64,000 nucleotides of DNA from a phage: the sequence record PZ445134.1. One strand, written 5' to 3'. The position numbers were made by a program, and so were the translations under genes. The notes under the pieces were generated by a model. That model searched no databases. It was not told where the DNA came from and worked only from the letters and a program-made list of their open reading frames with translations. Below are positions 2,345-39,153 of this stretch, in pieces (the first letter of the stretch is position 1; each line of letters begins with the position of its first letter).

Positions 2345-4327
2345 ATGGCACTTCTCTCTCCGGGCGTTGAGCTCAAAGAAACTACCGTACAGAGTACTGT
2401 AGTTAATAACTCCACTGGTACTGCTGCCCTGGCTGGAAAATTCCAATGGGGACCGGCATTCCAGATTAAACAAATCACTGATGAAGTTGCATTAGTTGAT
2501 ATGTTTGGTACTCCTAATACGGATACAGCAGATTATTTCATGTCTGCTATGAACTTCCTTCAATATGGTAATGACCTTCGTGTTGTACGCGCAGTTGATC
2601 GTGCTACTGCTAAGAACTCATCTCCTGTAGCAGGCAATATTGAATTCACAATCTCTGCTGCTGGTAGTAACTATGCAGTTGGTGATAAAATTATCGTTAA
2701 GTATTTGACCGAAACTGTTGAAGCAGATGGTTATGTCACTTCGGTTGATGTCGATGGTAAAATTCTTAACATTTATATCCCAACCGGTAAAATTATTGCT
2801 CGTGCAAAAGAAATTAATGAATATCCGGCATTGGGTTCTAACTGGACCGCCGAAGTTGCCAGTTCTTCTTCTGGACTTTCTGGCGTTATTACAATTGGTT
2901 CTATCGTAACCGATTCAGGTATTCTGTTAACTGAAGTTGAAACTTCTGAAGAAGCTATTACTTCTCTAACTTTCCAAGAATCTATTAAAAAATATGGTGT
3001 CCCAGGCGTAGTTGCTCTTTATCCTGGTGAACTTGGCGACCAGCTTGAAATCGAAATCGTATCTAAAGCAGACTATGACAAAGGTGCTTCAGCCCAGTTA
3101 AAAATTTATCCTGATGGTGGTACTCGTGCATCTACTGCTAAAGCAGTGTTTGGATATGGCCCACAAACTGATGACCAATATGCAATTATCGTTCGTCGTA
3201 ACGATGCTGTAGTTCAGAGCGTAATTCTTTCTACTAAGCGTGGTGAACGCGATATTTATGGTAGTAATATCTTTATTGATGATTTCTTTGCTAAAGGCGC
3301 AAGCAATTATATTTTCGCTACTGCACAAGGTTGGCCAAAAGGTTTCTCTGGCGTAATCAAACTGAATGGTGGCTTATCATCTAATGAAACGGTTGACGCT
3401 GGTGATTTAATGGAAGCTTGGGATTTGTTTGCCGATCGTGAATCCGTTAATGCGCAGTTGTTTATTGCCGGTTCTTGTGCAGGTGAATCTTTAGAAGTTG
3501 CTTCTACAGTTCAGAAACATGTTGTAGCAATTGGTGATTCTCGTCAAGATTGTTTGGTTCTTTGCTCACCGCCACGTGCAACTATAGTCGGTATTCCTGT
3601 TAATCGTGCAGTTGATAATCTGGTTGATTGGCGTACTGCGTCAGGAACTTACACTGATAATAACTTTAATATAAGTTCTACTTATGCTGCTATTGACGGT
3701 AACTATAAATATCAATATGACAAATATAATGACGTGAATCGTTGGGTTCCATTAGCTGCTGATATTGCTGGTCTTTGTGCTCGCACAGACAATATTTCTC
3801 AGCCTTGGATGTCTCCTGCCGGTTATAACCGTGGACAAATTCTTAACGTTATTAAGCTTGCAATTGAAACTCGCCAACCACAACGTGATCGTTTGTATCA
3901 GGAAGCTATTAACCCTGTTACTGGTACCGGTGGTGATGGGTATGTTCTGTATGGTGATAAAACTGCCACTTCTGTTCCTTCACCGTTTGACCGTATTAAC
4001 GTTCGTCGTTTGTTCAATATGGTTAAAACGAACATTGGTTCAGCATCTAAATATCGCCTGTTTGAATTGAACAACGCATTTACCCGTTCTTCTTTCCGTA
4101 CAGAGACCTCTCAATATCTACAGGGTATTAAAGCTCTTGGTGGTGTATATAACTTTAAAGTTGTTTGTGATACTACCAATAACACCCCAGCAGTTATCGA
4201 CCGTAATGAATTTGTAGCTACTTTCTACTTACAACCTGCCCGCTCGATAAATTATATTACGTTGAACTTTGTAGCAACAGCAACTGGTGCCGATTTCGAC
4301 GAACTAATTGGTACTGTAAGTGGCTAA
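2345..4327 (+). CDS. 18: contractile tail sheath protein
   Basis: 660 aa, MALLSPGVELKETTVQSTVVNNSTGTAALAGKFQWGP, T4 gp18-like over full length. Confidence 0.95.
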   Translation: MALLSPGVELKETTVQSTVVNNSTGTAALAGKFQWGPAFQIKQITDEVALVDMFGTPNTDTADYFMSAMNFLQYGNDLRVVRAVDRATAKNSSPVAGNIEFTISAAGSNYAVGDKIIVKYLTETVEADGYVTSVDVDGKILNIYIPTGKIIARAKEINEYPALGSNWTAEVASSSSGLSGVITIGSIVTDSGILLTEVETSEEAITSLTFQESIKKYGVPGVVALYPGELGDQLEIEIVSKADYDKGASAQLKIYPDGGTRASTAKAVFGYGPQTDDQYAIIVRRNDAVVQSVILSTKRGERDIYGSNIFIDDFFAKGASNYIFATAQGWPKGFSGVIKLNGGLSSNETVDAGDLMEAWDLFADRESVNAQLFIAGSCAGESLEVASTVQKHVVAIGDSRQDCLVLCSPPRATIVGIPVNRAVDNLVDWRTASGTYTDNNFNISSTYAAIDGNYKYQYDKYNDVNRWVPLAADIAGLCARTDNISQPWMSPAGYNRGQILNVIKLAIETRQPQRDRLYQEAINPVTGTGGDGYVLYGDKTATSVPSPFDRINVRRLFNMVKTNIGSASKYRLFELNNAFTRSSFRTETSQYLQGIKALGGVYNFKVVCDTTNNTPAVIDRNEFVATFYLQPARSINYITLNFVATATGADFDELIGTVSG

Positions 4328-5015: not shown

Positions 5016-6587
5016 ATGAAATTTAATATCTTAAGTTTGTTTGCTCCATGGGCAAAAATGGACGAACGTGATTACAAAGACCAAGAAAAAGAAAATTTAG
5101 AATCTATCACCACACCAAAATTAGACGACGGCGCTAAAGAATATGAAGTATCTGAAAATGAAGCACAGCAAACATATAATGCTATGTTTCAGAGAATGTT
5201 CGGTAGCCAAGAACCAGGGCTCAAATCAACGCGTGAATTAATCGATACGTATCGAAATTTGATGACGAACTATGAAGTGGATAATGCAGTCTCTGAAATA
5301 GTTTCCGATGCTATCGTATATGAAGATGATACAGAAGTCGTTTCTATAAATTTAGACAACACAAAATTTAGTCCAAATATCAAATCAATGATGTTGGATG
5401 AATTTAACGAAGTGTTAAATCATTTATCTTTCCAACGTAAAGGTTCAGATCATTTTAGACGTTGGTATGTGGATTCTCGAATTTTCTTCCATAAAATTAT
5501 TGACCCTAAACGCCCTAAAGAAGGTATTAAAGAGCTTCGTCGTTTAGACCCACGTCAAGTTCAATATGTCCGTGAAGTTATTACAACCACTGAAGCCGGT
5601 GTTAAAATAGTCAAGGGTTATAAAGAATATTTCATTTATGACACATCACACGAATCTTATGCTTGTGATGGTCGAATATATGAAGCTGGCACAAAAATAA
5701 AAATCCCTAAAGCCGCGATTGTTTATGCCCATTCTGGTTTAGTTGATTGTTGTGGTAAAAATATCATTGGTTATTTGCATCGGGCTATTAAGCCAGCGAA
5801 CCAATTAAAACTTCTTGAAGATGCCGTCGTAATTTATCGTATTACTCGTGCTCCTGATCGTCGTGTATGGTATGTTGATACAGGTAATATGCCCTCAAGA
5901 AAAGCAGCAGAACATATGCAACATGTTATGAATACGATGAAAAACCGTATTGCATATGATGCTACTACAGGCAAGATTAAAAACCAGCAGCATATTATGT
6001 CGATGACCGAAGATTATTGGTTACAACGACGTGATGGTAAAGCGGTAACAGAAGTTGACACATTACCAGGTGCAGATAATACTGGAAATATGGAAGATGT
6101 ACGTTGGTTCCGTAATGCGCTTTATATGGCTTTACGTATTCCTATTACCCGTATTCCAAGTGACCAGGGTGGTATACAGTTTGATGCTGGTACTTCTATT
6201 ACACGAGATGAATTGACATTTGGTAAATTTATTCGTGAGCTGCAACATAAATTTGAAGAGATATTCCTAGACCCGCTTAAAACTAATTTAATTCTTAAAG
6301 GAATTATTACAGAAGATGAGTGGAATGATGAAATAAATAATATTAAGATAAAATTTCATCGGGATAGTTATTTCTCGGAATTAAAGGATGCTGAGATTCT
6401 GGAGCGTCGCATTAATATGCTTCAGATGGCCGAACCATTTATTGGTAAATATATTTCTCACAGAACAGCTATGAAAGATATTCTTCAGATGTCTGACGAG
6501 GAAATTGAACAAGAGGCTAAGCAAATTGAAGAAGAGTCGAAAGAGGCTCGTTTCCAAGACCCCGACCAAGAACAAGAGGATTTTTAA
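5016..6587 (+). CDS. 20: portal vertex protein
   Basis: 523 aa, T4 gp20 size, position and sequence character; late promoter upstream. Confidence 0.9.
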
Positions 6588-10372: not shown

Positions 10373-11032
10373 CTATAGCTTAAAACAATCATCGCGTTCA
10401 TTAATCCAATTTCTTATAGTTTTTGCGGATACGTTAAAGAATTCGGCAGCGTAATCGTAGTGGTTAAATTCATGACCTTTAATAGAAATATCCACAAATA
10501 CAAATTTCTTACCTTTATTAGAATTCTTTCTAATTTTTGCTTTATGCTCTTCTGATAGTTTTCTACCTTTAAGATGAGAATCTCTATTTTTATAAAACTT
10601 TTTATTTGCTATAGATTTGTTTTCTCGATGTTCTTTAGATTCTTTAGAACCTAATTTCTTTTTAGATATTTTGGCCCGAACTTCTTCAGTCATACCAGCT
10701 TTTGTCTTTTCGGATAACATCTCACGATACCCAGGTTCCTGTAAAGCTACTATAACAGGATTACCCTTGCCGCCTAAGGCGGCATTATAAGTATCTGTTC
10801 TCATGACAAAAGCCTCGTCAACTAGTTCGGCTTCCTTAGCATACATCTCTTCAGATGTTTCGAAATTGAAAAGGATTTCCTTTTTAAAATTCTCTAAGCC
10901 GTATTTCTTTATGGATTTTACTATGTTAACCCCGGAACCCATATAAGAATCGTTAACATCTGTAGTGGCATGGGCTCCAACATAAATCTTGTTATTAATG
11001 AGATTGGTTATTTTGTAAATTAAATAATTCAT
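10373..11032 (-). CDS. free-standing GIY-YIG homing endonuclease (Seg-like)
   Basis: 219 aa; N-terminal IYKITNLINNKIYVGAH (GIY-YIG) and C-terminal basic NUMOD-like repeats; sits between genes 23 and 24 on the opposite strand. Confidence 0.8.
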   Translation of the reverse strand: MNYLIYKITNLINNKIYVGAHATTDVNDSYMGSGVNIVKSIKKYGLENFKKEILFNFETSEEMYAKEAELVDEAFVMRTDTYNAALGGKGNPVIVALQEPGYREMLSEKTKAGMTEEVRAKISKKKLGSKESKEHRENKSIANKKFYKNRDSHLKGRKLSEEHKAKIRKNSNKGKKFVFVDISIKGHEFNHYDYAAEFFNVSAKTIRNWINERDDCFKL

Positions 11033-14378: not shown

Positions 14379-15509
14379 TTATGGATAGGTATAGATGATA
14401 CCAGTTTCTAAAGCAGTTTTATGAATGATGTATCCATTACGTGATTCTTGAACATCAACTTCTGGATAGTCTTTCATCATCTTCTGAAGGGTGTAACGAT
14501 GCAAGTAGTACTTACTATCTGGGTCGTCAGTTTTCCAGTCTTTACCTTCTTCAGCCATTTTTTGGATTTCATCCATAACCCACCAACCACACCAGATATA
14601 AGCTGAAGTACGATGTGGAAGAGGATGAACATAAGGTAGTTCACCTTCTGGTTCTGGAGCAACTTTATCAGTTACCTGAACTTGACCTTCTGCTGTAATA
14701 GTTTTGCTATCATAATCAGTAGCAGTAACAGTAGCAGTAACTTCAATAGTTTGACTTCCAATAGATGATGTATCAACGGTGTATACGTTAGTTGACCCTT
14801 CTACAGGAGAAGAATTTTTCTTCCACGAGTAAGTAATTTGTGCTGCGTCAGGTGCGCCAGTAACATTAGCAGTAAACGTAGCCGAAGCATCTTGCTGAAC
14901 GTTAATAGAAGGAGGAGTCAATGTAACCTGTGGATTCATTGTCTTCTTATTAACCGTCAATGATACTTCATTAGAAGTAACGCTCAGTGCATCATAATCT
15001 GTCGCTGTTACTTGAGCTACACACTTGATTTTTTTAACTCCGCTTGTAGTAGGAGTGTAATTGAATGTAGCACTAGTTGCTTCGCTCACAGGAGAACCAT
15101 CTACATGCCACTGATACGTAGCAGACGCTCCAGCCGGTTGAGAAGCTAAGGCAGCAGTAAATTCAACAGGAGTTCCAATTACTCCTGCAGCAGGACTATC
15201 AGGAGTTACAGCTAAGGTAGTTGTCTGTGTCTTATTTTGAACTGTGATAGTTGTTGTCGCTTCAGCCGTTTCCGGGCCTCCTTCAGAAAGTGTATTTGTT
15301 GCAACAACTTTAATTGTTTTTGTTCCAGCAGGTCCTTTTAACACATAATCAAAAGTTTCTGCCGATCCTACTTGAGGAGCATCGTCTACACTCCATGCAT
15401 AGGTAATAGTTCCACCTCCAGTTTCACCACTGGGAGTAGCAGTAAACTGCTTAGTCTCATCTATAACTCCAGTAGGGGTTTTAGGAGTTATATCAACTGT
15501 AAAAGCCAT
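14379..15509 (-). CDS. hoc: highly immunogenic outer capsid protein with Ig-like domains
   Basis: 376 aa, Thr/Ser/Val-rich repeated Ig-like segments, C-terminal capsid-binding region, T4 Hoc position. Confidence 0.85.
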   Translation of the reverse strand: MAFTVDITPKTPTGVIDETKQFTATPSGETGGGTITYAWSVDDAPQVGSAETFDYVLKGPAGTKTIKVVATNTLSEGGPETAEATTTITVQNKTQTTTLAVTPDSPAAGVIGTPVEFTAALASQPAGASATYQWHVDGSPVSEATSATFNYTPTTSGVKKIKCVAQVTATDYDALSVTSNEVSLTVNKKTMNPQVTLTPPSINVQQDASATFTANVTGAPDAAQITYSWKKNSSPVEGSTNVYTVDTSSIGSQTIEVTATVTATDYDSKTITAEGQVQVTDKVAPEPEGELPYVHPLPHRTSAYIWCGWWVMDEIQKMAEEGKDWKTDDPDSKYYLHRYTLQKMMKDYPEVDVQESRNGYIIHKTALETGIIYTYP

Positions 15510-15518
15510 AAGTTATCC

Positions 15519-16187
15519 TTATTTTAATGTTACGAAAGAAGAATTACGAGATTCACGAATTAGAACTGATCCATCGCGATTAATATAATAAATTAAGCTA
15601 AATAATGTTTGGTGAGCAGAAGCATGCACAAAACTAGTTGGGCGAGATTTCCAATCTGGGGTTTCGGCTATCCATTGATAAATCCACCAAGGAACAGTAA
15701 CATATCCTGGGCTTTTGCCTAATTTAATGAGTGTAGGACTAAAATTTTCAGGCAGAACAAATGTTACTTCTTTATTTACATCTGCCTCAGGCTCTTTTTC
15801 AGATTCAACAACCTGAGTAATTGCTTCTTCGAATTTATCATGGTCGAATTCTTTTTCTTGTTCGACAACTTCTAATACTTCAACTTGTTCTGTTGGAGAA
15901 TCAAACAACAGAATAGCTTCTTCTTTAACTTCTTCGTTGGTGAAATTAACACCGTCTGCATCATCTGCGGCAGTAATTAAATCAGTGATAGATAATCCAT
16001 CAGTTTCAGGTAATGGTTCATCAGCCAGTGCTTTAAGAGCTTCTTCGATATCAATAACAATATTATCGAATGATTTTGTTTTCTTAACACTTATGCCAAA
16101 TTGTTCTGCGTATTCAAACAGTTTAGCTTTGGCTTCCTTTTTATCAGAAAGAGCACGTAACTCTTCAATGTAGTCTTTATCGATCAT
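15519..16187 (-). CDS. inh: putative inhibitor of prohead protease
   Basis: 222 aa acidic protein in the T4 inh position between hoc and the homing endonuclease. Confidence 0.6.
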   Translation of the reverse strand: MIDKDYIEELRALSDKKEAKAKLFEYAEQFGISVKKTKSFDNIVIDIEEALKALADEPLPETDGLSITDLITAADDADGVNFTNEEVKEEAILLFDSPTEQVEVLEVVEQEKEFDHDKFEEAITQVVESEKEPEADVNKEVTFVLPENFSPTLIKLGKSPGYVTVPWWIYQWIAETPDWKSRPTSFVHASAHQTLFSLIYYINRDGSVLIRESRNSSFVTLK

Positions 16188-16224
16188 GGTATTTCCTCAT
16201 TATAAATATAACTATATTTATTAC

Positions 16225-16968
16225 ATGGAAAAGAGTATGTATCACTTTGTTTATGAGACCGTAAATTTAATCAATGGTAAAAAGTACATTGGCAAACATT
16301 CTACAGAAAATTTAAACGATTCGTATCTAGGGTCAGGTGTTGCCTTAAATCGCGCTATCAAAAAATACGGAAAAGAATCATTTAAACGTTCAATAATTAA
16401 ACAATTTGAAACTTCCGCTGAAGCTTTAGAATACGAAGCTCAGTTAGTAACAGAGGATTTGGTCAAATCTAACGAGTATTATAATATGCGCCAAGGCGGT
16501 GAAGGTGGAAGGTATAAGTACACCGAAGCTGATAAGACTAAAATGTCTAATAGTGCTAAAGAACGAATAAAGAGGCTTGGTCATAATCTTTTAGGAAAAC
16601 ACAGATCGGAAGAAACAAAAAGAAAACTATCTGAAACAAATAAACGTCGATACTCTGAAGACCCGACATGCCACGGGCGGTATGGTACAGGAAAGCCAAA
16701 GATTGATAAAATTAAAGGTCCTAAAAATCCTACAACTCTAAATAAAATTTGTGTTAACAACGGTAAAGAAAACAGATTTATATCAGCCGAGGACCCGATG
16801 CCTGAAGGATTTGTAAAAGGAATGGTCCAACTTAATAGAAAATCTAGAAAGGGCTGTGAAGTAAAACCTACGACCACCGGCAGAATATGGGTAAATAACG
16901 GGGCTATAAATAAATTAGTAAATCCGTTATCCATCCCAGATGGATATGTTAAAGGCCGTTTAAGGTAA
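16225..16968 (+). CDS. free-standing GIY-YIG homing endonuclease (SegE-like by position)
   Basis: GIY-YIG N-terminus HFVYETVNLINGKKYIGKHS; C-terminal repeated VNNG...G(F/Y)VKG DNA-binding motifs; start uncertain (16186, 16225 or 16237). Confidence 0.75.
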   Translation: MEKSMYHFVYETVNLINGKKYIGKHSTENLNDSYLGSGVALNRAIKKYGKESFKRSIIKQFETSAEALEYEAQLVTEDLVKSNEYYNMRQGGEGGRYKYTEADKTKMSNSAKERIKRLGHNLLGKHRSEETKRKLSETNKRRYSEDPTCHGRYGTGKPKIDKIKGPKNPTTLNKICVNNGKENRFISAEDPMPEGFVKGMVQLNRKSRKGCEVKPTTTGRIWVNNGAINKLVNPLSIPDGYVKGRLR

Positions 16969-35023: not shown

Positions 35024-35332
35024 TTACATAAGAAGCAAACGTTCCACCGGAGTACCATCAACCGAAATTACTTTATCAAGGCGGAAAGAACGCCACTGAC
35101 CTAACTTGGTGTCGAATGCTCGAACTGATTCACGAGGTTCATAACGAACTTCTGTTGCCGGATTGTTATTTTCATATTTGACTTCAAGTTCATCGCGCGA
35201 AGCAAACATAGTGCGTACCTCACCGTTAGCCTTTTCAAATACAACACAATGAACGCCTACAGACAGAATAGTTTTAATACGTTCACGAAGAACCATAGTT
35301 TCTTGTTCAGTTAAAATCATATTATTCACCAC
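35024..35332 (-). CDS. hypothetical protein
   Basis: 102-aa ORF between cd and gene 31. Confidence 0.5.
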   Translation of the reverse strand: MVNNMILTEQETMVLRERIKTILSVGVHCVVFEKANGEVRTMFASRDELEVKYENNNPATEVRYEPRESVRAFDTKLGQWRSFRLDKVISVDGTPVERLLLM

Positions 35333-35903
35333 AAAAGTTTCGGATTTGTTCCCAATTCAGAGAACGAAGATTATTACGAGAGTACTGAATTACTTCAATA
35401 CCGGCTTGTTTTAGAATGTCTGCCCAATTTTCAGGAGATCTGTCATATAATTCTGCGTATACAACCTTTTTAATACCTGACTGCGTAATAGCTTTAGTGC
35501 AATCAGGACACGGAGAAAGCGTCGTATATAACGTAGCACCTTCAATAGAATTACCTTTACGAGCTGCAAACAAAATTGCGTTCAATTCCGCATGGATTTC
35601 GTTATTAGCAGACCATGCACTATGAGCGGCCCGATGTTCTTTAGCCAAAACAAAATTATCTGCCCGTCCAAATGCTGTAGTGCCTTCTTTATGACCAGCA
35701 ACGATGACCGGGCTTGGTTTATTCTTCAACCAACCGTTTTCGGATGCATGTTCGCAACAGTTTGTACCACCTGAAGGAGAGCCATTATAACCTGTAGAAA
35801 TAATGCGTCCATCTTTTTCAATGACGGCACCAACTTTCCATGAACAACATTTTGATTCTTGAGAAATCAGATATGCAATCTGAAGGTATGTGCTAGCTTT
35901 CAT
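35322..35903 (-). CDS. cd: dCMP deaminase
   Basis: 193 aa; zinc-binding deaminase motifs HAE(L) and PCxxC (SPCPDC). Confidence 0.92.
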   Translation of the reverse strand: MKASTYLQIAYLISQESKCCSWKVGAVIEKDGRIISTGYNGSPSGGTNCCEHASENGWLKNKPSPVIVAGHKEGTTAFGRADNFVLAKEHRAAHSAWSANNEIHAELNAILFAARKGNSIEGATLYTTLSPCPDCTKAITQSGIKKVVYAELYDRSPENWADILKQAGIEVIQYSRNNLRSLNWEQIRNFCGE

Positions 35904-36895
35904 TATTGAACCTTATTAATATAAGTTAACAGCTCTTTAGTTTGTTCCCAACTGATGCACGCATCGGTAATGGAAACGCCATAGGACATATTATCAGAAA
36001 TTTTTTGATTTCCTTCATGTAGGAATGATTCTATCATAATTCCTTTGACCAAATCATTAGCTGCTAAATTTTTACCAATACCAATTTGATTGCTATAATA
36101 CCCATCAGCGTTTGCATGGCTACAGTCAACCATTACATAATGATTCAGACCTAATGCACTTGCTTTGTTAGAAGCTTCTTGAATATCAGAAGAATGATAG
36201 TTCGGGCCGTTAGTCCCGCCACGCAATACGATATGCGTATTCTGATTACCTTCAGCTTCAACAATGCCTACAGTACCATCGACGTCCATACCCATATACC
36301 GATGAGGCCAGGCGGCACTATACATCGCGTCTGTAGCTACTTTAATAGAACCATTGGTTGCGTTCTTGAAGCCTACGCACATCGGTAGACCTGAAGCAAT
36401 TTCACGATGTGTCTGACTTTCAGTCGTACGGGCGCCAATAGCAACCCATGAGAAAATACCAGAAAGATACTTAATCGTGAATGGGTCTAATACTTCAGTT
36501 GCTAATGGAAGTCCCATACGTAGAAGTTTACGACACAATGTTCGTGCAACTATAAGACCGTGGTTCATATCAAAACTTCCGTCAAGATATGGATCATTTA
36601 CAAGACCTTTCCAACCTACGGTAGTTCGAGGCTTTTCAAAATAAACGCGCATCACTAACAGAACATTAGGAAGACGAGTTTGAAGTTCAGCCAGACGTTT
36701 GCCATATTCAACAGCAGCAATAGGGTCATGAATTGAACAAGGACCTACAACAATAAGTTTGCGTGGGTCTTCACCGTTCATAATCGAATTAACTTGTTCG
36801 CGATGAGAAGCCACTTGTGATGCGTAAGCTTCCGACAAAGGAATAATCTCAGCCAGTTCTTTTGGAGAAATAAGTTTTCTGATGACAGGTAACAT
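35903..36895 (-). CDS. 3-deoxy-D-arabino-heptulosonate-7-phosphate (DAHP) synthase, class I (AroG/F/H-like)
   Basis: 330 aa; motifs GPCSIHD, EKPRTTVGWKGL, GARTTESQ, CSHAN, ESxLxEGNQ and SITDACI align with E. coli AroG active-site and metal-binding residues. Confidence 0.85.
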   Translation of the reverse strand: MLPVIRKLISPKELAEIIPLSEAYASQVASHREQVNSIMNGEDPRKLIVVGPCSIHDPIAAVEYGKRLAELQTRLPNVLLVMRVYFEKPRTTVGWKGLVNDPYLDGSFDMNHGLIVARTLCRKLLRMGLPLATEVLDPFTIKYLSGIFSWVAIGARTTESQTHREIASGLPMCVGFKNATNGSIKVATDAMYSAAWPHRYMGMDVDGTVGIVEAEGNQNTHIVLRGGTNGPNYHSSDIQEASNKASALGLNHYVMVDCSHANADGYYSNQIGIGKNLAANDLVKGIMIESFLHEGNQKISDNMSYGVSITDACISWEQTKELLTYINKVQ

Positions 36896-37015
36896 AACAA
36901 TCCTTAGGAGATATAAACAGATTCTGATTCAACAATACCTTTAACCGGATTAGACAGGCTAAGTTGGTAGTGCTCAGATTTATGACCATTCTCGATAGTA
37001 ATGAGATAACTCTCA

Positions 37016-37252
37016 TTATAGTGTTCCATATACTCGAGTTGCTTCAACAAGACCATCACTGCCTAATTTAAGATTAGTAATTTGGTCACCATCTTTAGGA
37101 TTAACGATTATGAGAAAAGAACGAGGAGATTCTTGAATAACTCGTAATGTTGCATCCTGGAAACGTTCAGACACTTTATTGATGAGTGCTTGAGCGAATT
37201 CTTTTACTTTAATCTGAAATTCGTGTACTGTAATTGGATTTTCACTTAGCAT
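37016..37252 (-). CDS. hypothetical early protein
   Basis: 78-aa ORF with early promoter upstream. Confidence 0.5.
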   Translation of the reverse strand: MLSENPITVHEFQIKVKEFAQALINKVSERFQDATLRVIQESPRSFLIIVNPKDGDQITNLKLGSDGLVEATRVYGTL

Positions 37253-37270: not shown

Positions 37271-37301
37271 TGGTAGAGTTATAGTATCACAACTCTACTG
37301 T
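37271..37301 (-). promoter_or_regulatory. sigma70-type early promoter (GTTTAC / TGATACTATAA)
   Basis: + strand tatagtatca ... gtaaac. Confidence 0.45.
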
Positions 37302-37310
37302 GTTGTAAAC

Positions 37311-37990: not shown

Positions 37991-39153
<1,163 letters not shown>

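Follow-up and report, generated by a model that had tools for sequence, protein, structure and literature searches.

A DAHP synthase widespread in T4-like phages keeps its catalytic residues and appears to have lost the inhibitor pocket of the host enzymes

The enzyme 3-deoxy-7-phosphoheptulonate synthase (DAHP synthase; EC 2.5.1.54) converts phosphoenolpyruvate (PEP) and erythrose-4-phosphate (E4P) to DAHP and inorganic phosphate, and is both the point of flux control and the target of feedback regulation at the entry to the shikimate pathway. A gene for such an enzyme is present in a 64,000-nucleotide stretch of phage DNA (sequence record PZ445134.1; hereafter the window), where a 330-residue open reading frame (ORF) with an ATG start occupies positions 35903..36895 on the minus strand. 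An earlier interpretation of the DNA from its letters alone (the sequence-only reading) had placed the ORF at exactly these coordinates, leaving the strand unstated. The gene as such is already known, being annotated in more than 200 phage genomes, represented by a PHROG family and mentioned as a putative auxiliary metabolic gene in two papers. A tblastn search detects it in 213 phage records, with an identity of at least 95% in 140, under annotations such as ‘phospho-2-dehydro-3-deoxyheptonate aldolase’, ‘DAHP synthase I alpha’, ‘AroG’ and ‘aroF’, and the proteins of phages ST0, SF, PHB12 and others are 99.7% identical to that of the window. The corresponding family, PHROG 5045 (Mosigvirus, Kanagawavirus, Marfavirus, Winklervirus, Bragavirus and relatives), is filed under ‘moron, auxiliary metabolic gene and host takeover’, and the window gene is a plain member of it, with no substantive difference. 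The gene is mentioned in the phiC120 genome paper (PMC8022965), and a Klebsiella phage study describes it as an amino-acid auxiliary metabolic gene of a Kanagawavirus (PMC11845039). The proposal of the sequence-only reading that this is an auxiliary metabolic gene matches both the PHROG category and the literature, but is not a discovery. What we add is modest, namely that the feedback-inhibitor pocket looks dismantled throughout the phage clade.

The inhibitor site has been described for the Escherichia coli enzymes AroG and AroF, where Q151/Q152 and S180/S181 (AroG/AroF numbering) contact the main chain of the bound Phe or Tyr, as summarized in a review on the engineering of DAHP synthase feedback (PMC9529685). 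Feedback-resistant variants include D146N, P150L, S180F, L175D, F209A/S and V221A (PMC9529685). In addition, D6 and D7 belong to the Phe site of the AroG structure 1KFL; with D6/D7 substituted, over 80% of the activity remains at 0.5 mM Phe, and D6G-D7A is a feedback-resistant AroG variant (PMC6520568).

Profile matches and a structural model identify the product of 35903..36895 as a predicted class Iα DAHP synthase of the AroF/AroG/AroH type. The protein matches Pfam DAHP_synth_1 (PF00793) over nearly the whole model (E=1.7e-74; 250.6 bits against a cut-off of 25.5 bits), a family that also takes in the 3-deoxy-D-manno-octulosonate 8-phosphate (KDO8P) synthases. All four of its NCBIfam matches are DAHP synthase models, with no KDO8P synthase model among them: its score is 426.6 bits with the aroFGH equivalog TIGR00034 (cut-off 173.2) and 454 bits with NF009395 (cut-off 343), and it falls below the cut-offs of the isozyme-specific AroG (362.8 versus 568 bits) and AroH (385.2 versus 463 bits) models. 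PHROG 5045 is matched end to end, over residues 1–330 (E=1.3e-181). Every sequence match in the Protein Data Bank is likewise a DAHP synthase, the E. coli Tyr-sensitive AroF (6agm, E=1.6e-104) ranking first, ahead of the Neisseria meningitidis enzyme and E. coli AroG. An AlphaFold2 model built from a 60-sequence alignment (predicted local distance difference test score, pLDDT, 91.1; predicted template-modelling score, pTM, 0.91) superimposes in Foldseek on E. coli AroG (8e0u, 1kfl) with a template-modelling (TM) score of 0.96 and a root-mean-square deviation of 1.4 Å. The model comprises a (β/α)8 barrel with the decorations of the Iα enzymes, an N-terminal extension and the β6a/β6b hairpin, the extra strands lying at residues 198–203 and 209–214. 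Thus, the family assignment of the sequence-only reading is borne out by profile search, by modelling on AroG and, as described below, by individual residues.

The catalytic apparatus of the phage enzyme is, as judged by alignment, complete. Two alignments were used, a MAFFT alignment of 12 sequences that includes AroG, AroF and AroH of E. coli MG1655 and a larger set of 123 sequences that comprises 25 proteins of the phage clade and 98 cellular enzymes. The motifs quoted in the sequence-only reading are all present, namely GPCSIHD (residues 51–57), KPRTT (88–92), GARTTESQ (154–161), CSHAN (258–262), ESFLHEGNQ (289–297) and SITDACI (308–314), and map onto C61, K97–T101, G163–Q170, H268, E302 and D326 of AroG. 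The metal ligands Cys53, His260, Glu289 and Asp311 correspond to AroG C61, H268, E302 and D326 and are invariant in all 123 aligned sequences, while the residues that contact PEP and E4P (Arg83, Lys88-Pro89-Arg90-Thr91, Gly154-Ala155-Arg156, Lys177 and Arg225) correspond to AroG R92, K97–T100, G163–R165, K186 and R234. Ten positions were tallied across the larger set (AroG C61, R92, K97, R99, R165, K186, R234, H268, E302 and D326), and each is invariant in 25/25 phage and 98/98 cellular proteins. The position of AroG T100 is occupied by Thr in all 25 phage proteins and by Thr (94) or Ser (4) in the cellular set; P98, G163 and A164 are invariant in the 12-sequence alignment, in which alone they were checked. 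Nothing that the catalytic core requires in the sequence-only reading was found to be missing on a proper alignment.

The positions of the inhibitor site show the opposite pattern in the same 123 sequences. The catalytic Cys lies at residue 49–53 in the phage proteins and at residue 59–96 in the cellular ones, and the offset between Cys53 and AroG Cys61 noted from the letters is right, the counterparts of AroG residues 2–9 being absent from the phage protein. The positions of AroG D6 and D7, which carry an acidic or amide residue (D/E/N/Q) in 94 and in all of the 98 cellular enzymes, respectively, are absent from 25/25 phage proteins. Within the pocket, P150 (Pro in 90/98 cellular enzymes) is replaced by Ile in 24 of the 25 phage proteins (Ile141 in the window), and Q151, invariant in the cellular set (98/98), by Lys in 24 and Arg in one (Lys142). 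At the position of S180, occupied by Ser in 97 and Thr in one of the cellular sequences, all 25 phage proteins have Pro (Pro171), and F209 (98/98 cellular) is Tyr throughout the phage clade (Tyr200; 25/25). The phage enzyme therefore combines changes at four or five positions at which other, different substitutions individually desensitize AroG, and the pocket for aromatic amino-acid inhibitors looks dismantled across the clade. Because the D6/D7 segment is deleted and P150, Q151, S180 and F209 are changed to Ile, Lys, Pro and Tyr, we consider it quite likely that the phage DAHP synthase is insensitive to Phe, Tyr and Trp. The sequence-only reading had derived such insensitivity from the short N-terminus; the loss of D6/D7 together with the substitutions in the pocket strengthens this suggestion, which still stands as a prediction from sequence. 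The altered pocket bears on regulation and leaves the assignment to the catalytic family untouched.

AroF (6AGM) is 51% identical to the phage protein over its full length, belongs to the same fold class and shares the catalytic residues, and the phage protein has Gly at the position of AroG S211, as does AroF. Relative to AroF, the phage protein has 26 fewer residues, is missing the part of the N-terminus in which AroF N8 and the adjoining residues lie, and carries the replacements P151→I, Q152→K, S181→P and F210→Y (AroF numbering). The two also differ in the G+C content at third codon positions (GC3; 29% in the phage gene versus 50% in aroF) and in their control, aroF being regulated by TyrR and the phage gene lying behind a putative phage early promoter. 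AroG (1KFL, 1QR7, 8E0U) provides the best structural match of the model and is 48% identical, with catalytic residues that correspond one to one; the difference lies in the Phe site, which appears lost from the phage protein (D6 and D7 deleted; P150, Q151, S180 and F209 replaced). Engineered feedback-resistant enzymes (AroG S180F, P150L and D6G-D7A; feedback-resistant AroF alleles) are altered at the same positions and likewise retain intact catalytic residues, whereas the phage enzyme fixes Pro, Ile and Lys, in contrast to the engineered Phe, Leu and Ala, and combines several changes naturally.

A further DAHP synthase, that of Aeromonas phage HJ05, is 37.5% identical to the window protein and shows Q151→H, S180→P and absence of D6/D7, which hints at convergent deregulation in phages at the level of sequence. 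HJ05 is an unrelated 79-kb phage with a separate DAHP synthase lineage, and its gene (2899..4062 of the HJ05 locus) is labelled ‘hypothetical protein’. Two other apparent phage examples were not counted: ‘Acinetobacter phage MD-2021a’ is a short contig with cob genes that looks bacterial and keeps the canonical inhibitor-site residues, and the match in ‘Salmonella phage S.Kent’ comes from a short record of 2.4 kb.

The window derives from a T4-like coliphage of the genus Mosigvirus: over 8 kb it shares about 97% identity with members of this genus such as RPN187 and AV112. On the minus strand, pseT (38067..38966) is followed by four small ORFs, which include homologues of cd.3 (DUF7355) and cd.2 (DUF7320), and then by the DAHP synthase gene, the dCMP deaminase gene cd (35322..35903; Pfam dCMP_cyt_deam_1, E=1.6e-26), a 31.1 homologue directly after cd (35024..35332; 102 residues, WYL_2/SH3 β-barrel), gene 31 and rIII. 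The cd.2 homologue (37016..37252, minus strand; 78 residues, Pfam E=1.5e-35, aligned with cd.2 of T4 and RB69) probably heads the early transcription unit to which the DAHP synthase gene belongs. The latter thus sits between cd.2 and cd, in the slot that holds the unrelated 112-residue cd.1 in T4. These findings agree with the sequence-only reading, which had positioned the gene between cd and pseT in an early region where T4 has only small ORFs: both flanking genes are on the minus strand, T4 carries cd.1 to cd.5 there, and the unit is of the T4 early type. As a separate observation, 31.2, which is present between cd and 31.1 in T4 and PEi20, is absent from the window.

The signals around the gene are consistent with early expression. 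A Shine-Dalgarno sequence, AAGGA (36901..36905, minus strand), lies 5 nt upstream of the ATG, and the TAA stop codon overlaps the start codon of cd (TAATG), an arrangement that suggests translational coupling of the two genes. A promoter scan found a T4-type early promoter-like site (GTTTACA, 17 nt, TG-n-TACTAT) between cd.3 and cd.2, at 37281..37309 on the minus strand, which is identical base for base with the intergenic region of T4 and RB69, where the T4 record places the early promoter Pe133295. A sequence scan revealed no terminator-like element between this site and the DAHP synthase gene, and the 105 bp immediately preceding the gene show neither a recognizable MotA-type middle promoter nor a terminator. 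Given the conserved early promoter and the lack of an intervening terminator, the gene is most likely co-transcribed early with cd. No other gene of the shikimate or aromatic pathways was seen among the window ORFs of at least 150 residues or in the annotation of the near-identical RPN187, which covers approximately positions 1–48,000 of the window, the remainder having been checked by the ORF list and spot Pfam searches; nor did the same checks yield another pentose-phosphate gene.

Alignment of the junctions with RB69, the type Mosigvirus, together with blastn, delimits the DAHP synthase gene and an adjoining cd.2 relic as a cassette of 1,094 bp. RB69 lacks exactly window positions 35907..37000 (minus strand), so that cd.2 abuts cd, with the junction at approximately 6237..6255 of the RB69 locus, and the microhomology ACTATAATGA(A/G)AG is common to both cassette junctions. 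A probe that spans the RB69 junction matched 20 records with an empty site, of which about 11 belong to Mosigvirus and 9 to WG01/QL01-like phages (~78% identity); the Mosigvirus phages with an empty site include RB69, vB_Eco_mar005P1, JK36, JK42, moha and ECO111 5-P. Even within the species Mosigvirus mar005p1, APCEc01 carries the gene and vB_Eco_mar005P1 has the empty site. Since the cassette is missing from RB69 and about 10 further Mosigvirus records, the DAHP synthase gene is dispensable and accessory. The relic is a 41-residue ORF (MEHYNESYLITIENGHKSEHYQLSLSNPVKGIVESESVYIS; 36904..37029, minus strand) in the gap between cd.2 and the DAHP synthase gene, and is annotated as a coding sequence in AV118 and APCEc01. 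It matches PHROG 15876 (E=1.9e-32) and also positions 44–76, in the C-terminal half, of the cd.2 family phrog_1504, and aligns to cd.2 of PEi20 and F48 at scores of 55–60 compared with 30 for the resident cd.2. The ORF thus looks like what remains of the 3′ half of a cd.2 of foreign type, the scar of a cassette exchange among T4-like phages, which favours import of the cassette from another T4-like lineage, while the flanking microhomology and the polymorphism within a species would also allow a later deletion in RB69-like phages. We note that RB69 cd (5743..6252 of the RB69 locus) is annotated with 169 residues, compared with 193 in the window and T4, over a region with DNA about 96% identical; the cause may be a frameshift, or a difference in annotation, at the 3′ end.

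The 25 sequences most similar to the window protein (57–98% identity) make up the phage clade, with named sources in Mosigvirus, Edwardsiella phage PEi20, Erwinia and Klebsiella phages, EcS1, SdyM_006 and Providencia phages. This clade is monophyletic in 200/200 neighbour-joining bootstrap replicates, with the enterobacterial AroF as a weak sister (69/200), and the nearest cellular proteins are only about 50–55% identical and come from scattered phyla. The slot upstream of cd also holds a DAHP synthase gene in Kanagawavirus PEi20, Marfavirus F48 and Bragavirus PM2, in the last with two small ORFs between it and cd, so that the synteny check proposed in the sequence-only reading returned the same position next to cd in several genera. 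GC3 of the gene (29%) is like that of the flanking phage genes, compared with 50–57% in E. coli aroF, aroG and aroH, and the ratio of nonsynonymous to synonymous substitution rates (dN/dS) against the orthologues of PEi20, F48 and PM2 is 0.16–0.21, with dS saturated. Monophyly, phage-like GC3, low dN/dS, a shared slot and distant cellular homologues together point to an old, selectively maintained gene of T4-like phages (Straboviridae). A recent capture from an E. coli host was rejected in view of the scattered homologues, the unanimous clade support and the phage-like composition.

Taken together, it is likely that the gene is expressed early and serves as a deregulated valve at the entrance of the shikimate pathway. 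The DAHP synthase would be transcribed early from the conserved promoter upstream of cd.2, at a time when host transcription is expected to be blocked (alc lies in the same region) and the leftover activity of the host DAHP synthases would stay under feedback control. The phage would thereby add an unregulated enzyme that feeds the remaining, otherwise intact shikimate enzymes of the host, and the supply of chorismate would rise, to the benefit of the aromatic amino acids and possibly of para-aminobenzoate/folate and quinone precursors. If so, this would be a clear example, from well-studied coliphages, of a virus that overrides host end-product control of amino-acid or cofactor synthesis, and the enzyme would represent a naturally evolved feedback-resistant DAHP synthase, a candidate for metabolic engineering. 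The existence of carrier and empty-site phages within one species makes the question of fitness easily tested.

Several points weigh against this proposal. The β6a/β6b hairpin and the N-terminal residues equivalent to β0, which build the dimer, are kept in the phage protein, D146, L179 and G211 are unchanged, and the replacement residues of the pocket show strict conservation across the phage clade. The within-genus dN/dS, which reaches about 1 in one pair, is uninformative with just 2–8 differences per pair, the promoter is called from a consensus match and conservation with T4 only, and a literature search returned passing mentions of the phage gene, with no enzyme assay and no genetic, transcript or proteome study. 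Since about 11 Mosigvirus records, among them RB69 and members of a carrier's own species, are without the gene, any benefit of the enzyme must moreover be conditional. The retained hairpin and β0 residues, together with the strict conservation of the replaced positions, mean that the pocket may have been re-tuned to another ligand rather than plainly abolished. The enzyme would then be an active DAHP synthase still under allosteric control, in which the remodelled pocket (Ile141, Lys142, Pro171, Tyr200) binds another effector, which might be a metabolite relevant to the phage or an intermediate of the pathway (chorismate or prephenate, for instance). Indeed, fixation of Lys/Arg142, Pro171 and Tyr200 in 25/25 members of the clade, down to about 57% identity, speaks for selection on the pocket and not decay, and the regulatory hairpin and dimer elements persist in the AlphaFold2 model. 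However, such fixation can equally reflect structural compensation in a closed, empty pocket, the loss of the D6/D7 lid and the change of S180 to proline are classic loss-of-binding changes, and the sequence yields no candidate ligand; we regard continued allosteric control as unlikely.

The apparent coupling of the gene to a nucleotide-metabolism cluster, with cd adjoining and further members (nrdAB, td and frd) in the same early region, raises the alternative that the enzyme serves as a substrate sink, for which an unregulated enzyme would indeed be an open drain. Consumption of E4P would pull the non-oxidative pentose-phosphate pathway towards the pentoses of nucleotides, or consumption of PEP would alter host sugar uptake; for the rest, this scheme leans on the stoichiometry of transketolase and transaldolase. 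It is purely inferential, and the adjacency to cd need not be functional, since the gene order is that of the T4 backbone and the slot holds the unrelated cd.1 in T4; nor were other pentose-phosphate or shikimate genes seen in the window. We consider a sink very unlikely. For the broader notion that the fixed Ile141, Lys142, Pro171 and Tyr200 reflect a re-purposed sensing of an infection-specific effector, or that the enzyme acts mainly as an E4P/PEP sink towards nucleotide precursors, our assessment is quite unlikely; either would reveal a textbook enzyme regulated in a novel way and a novel route by which phages take over the metabolism of enterobacteria. That the gene is present in some and absent from other members even of a single Mosigvirus species, and that the within-genus dN/dS is noisy, would also be compatible with a functionless passenger or decaying remnant, just as the breadth of PF00793 would accommodate another aldolase such as KDO8P synthase. 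Both ideas are extremely improbable. The ORF is intact in 213/213 carrying records, the examined catalytic residues are conserved clade-wide, long-range dN/dS is low and the composition is fully ameliorated to the phage genome, which led us to reject a pseudogene, and a KDO8P synthase was likewise rejected, in view of the 427 bits on the aroFGH equivalog with no KDO8P synthase model matched, and of the presence of the metal-binding Cys and the KPRT motif for E4P. A deregulated DAHP synthase remains our preferred explanation.

Outside the early region, the window differs from RPN187 at three loci. A 260-residue ORF of the GIY-YIG (SegE-like) homing endonuclease type is located at 16186..16968 (plus strand), directly upstream of uvsW, where RPN187 is without a gene. 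Between the genes for the major capsid and vertex proteins, a 219-residue ORF (10373..11032, minus strand) gives a weak SegE GIY-YIG match (E=8e-4), with only a 270-bp ORF at the counterpart in RPN187, and may be another mobile endonuclease insertion. Lastly, a 376-residue ORF with immunoglobulin/PKD-like repeats (14379..15509, minus strand), which is longer than the 852-bp ORF at the RPN187 counterpart, possibly encodes a Hoc-like capsid decoration protein.

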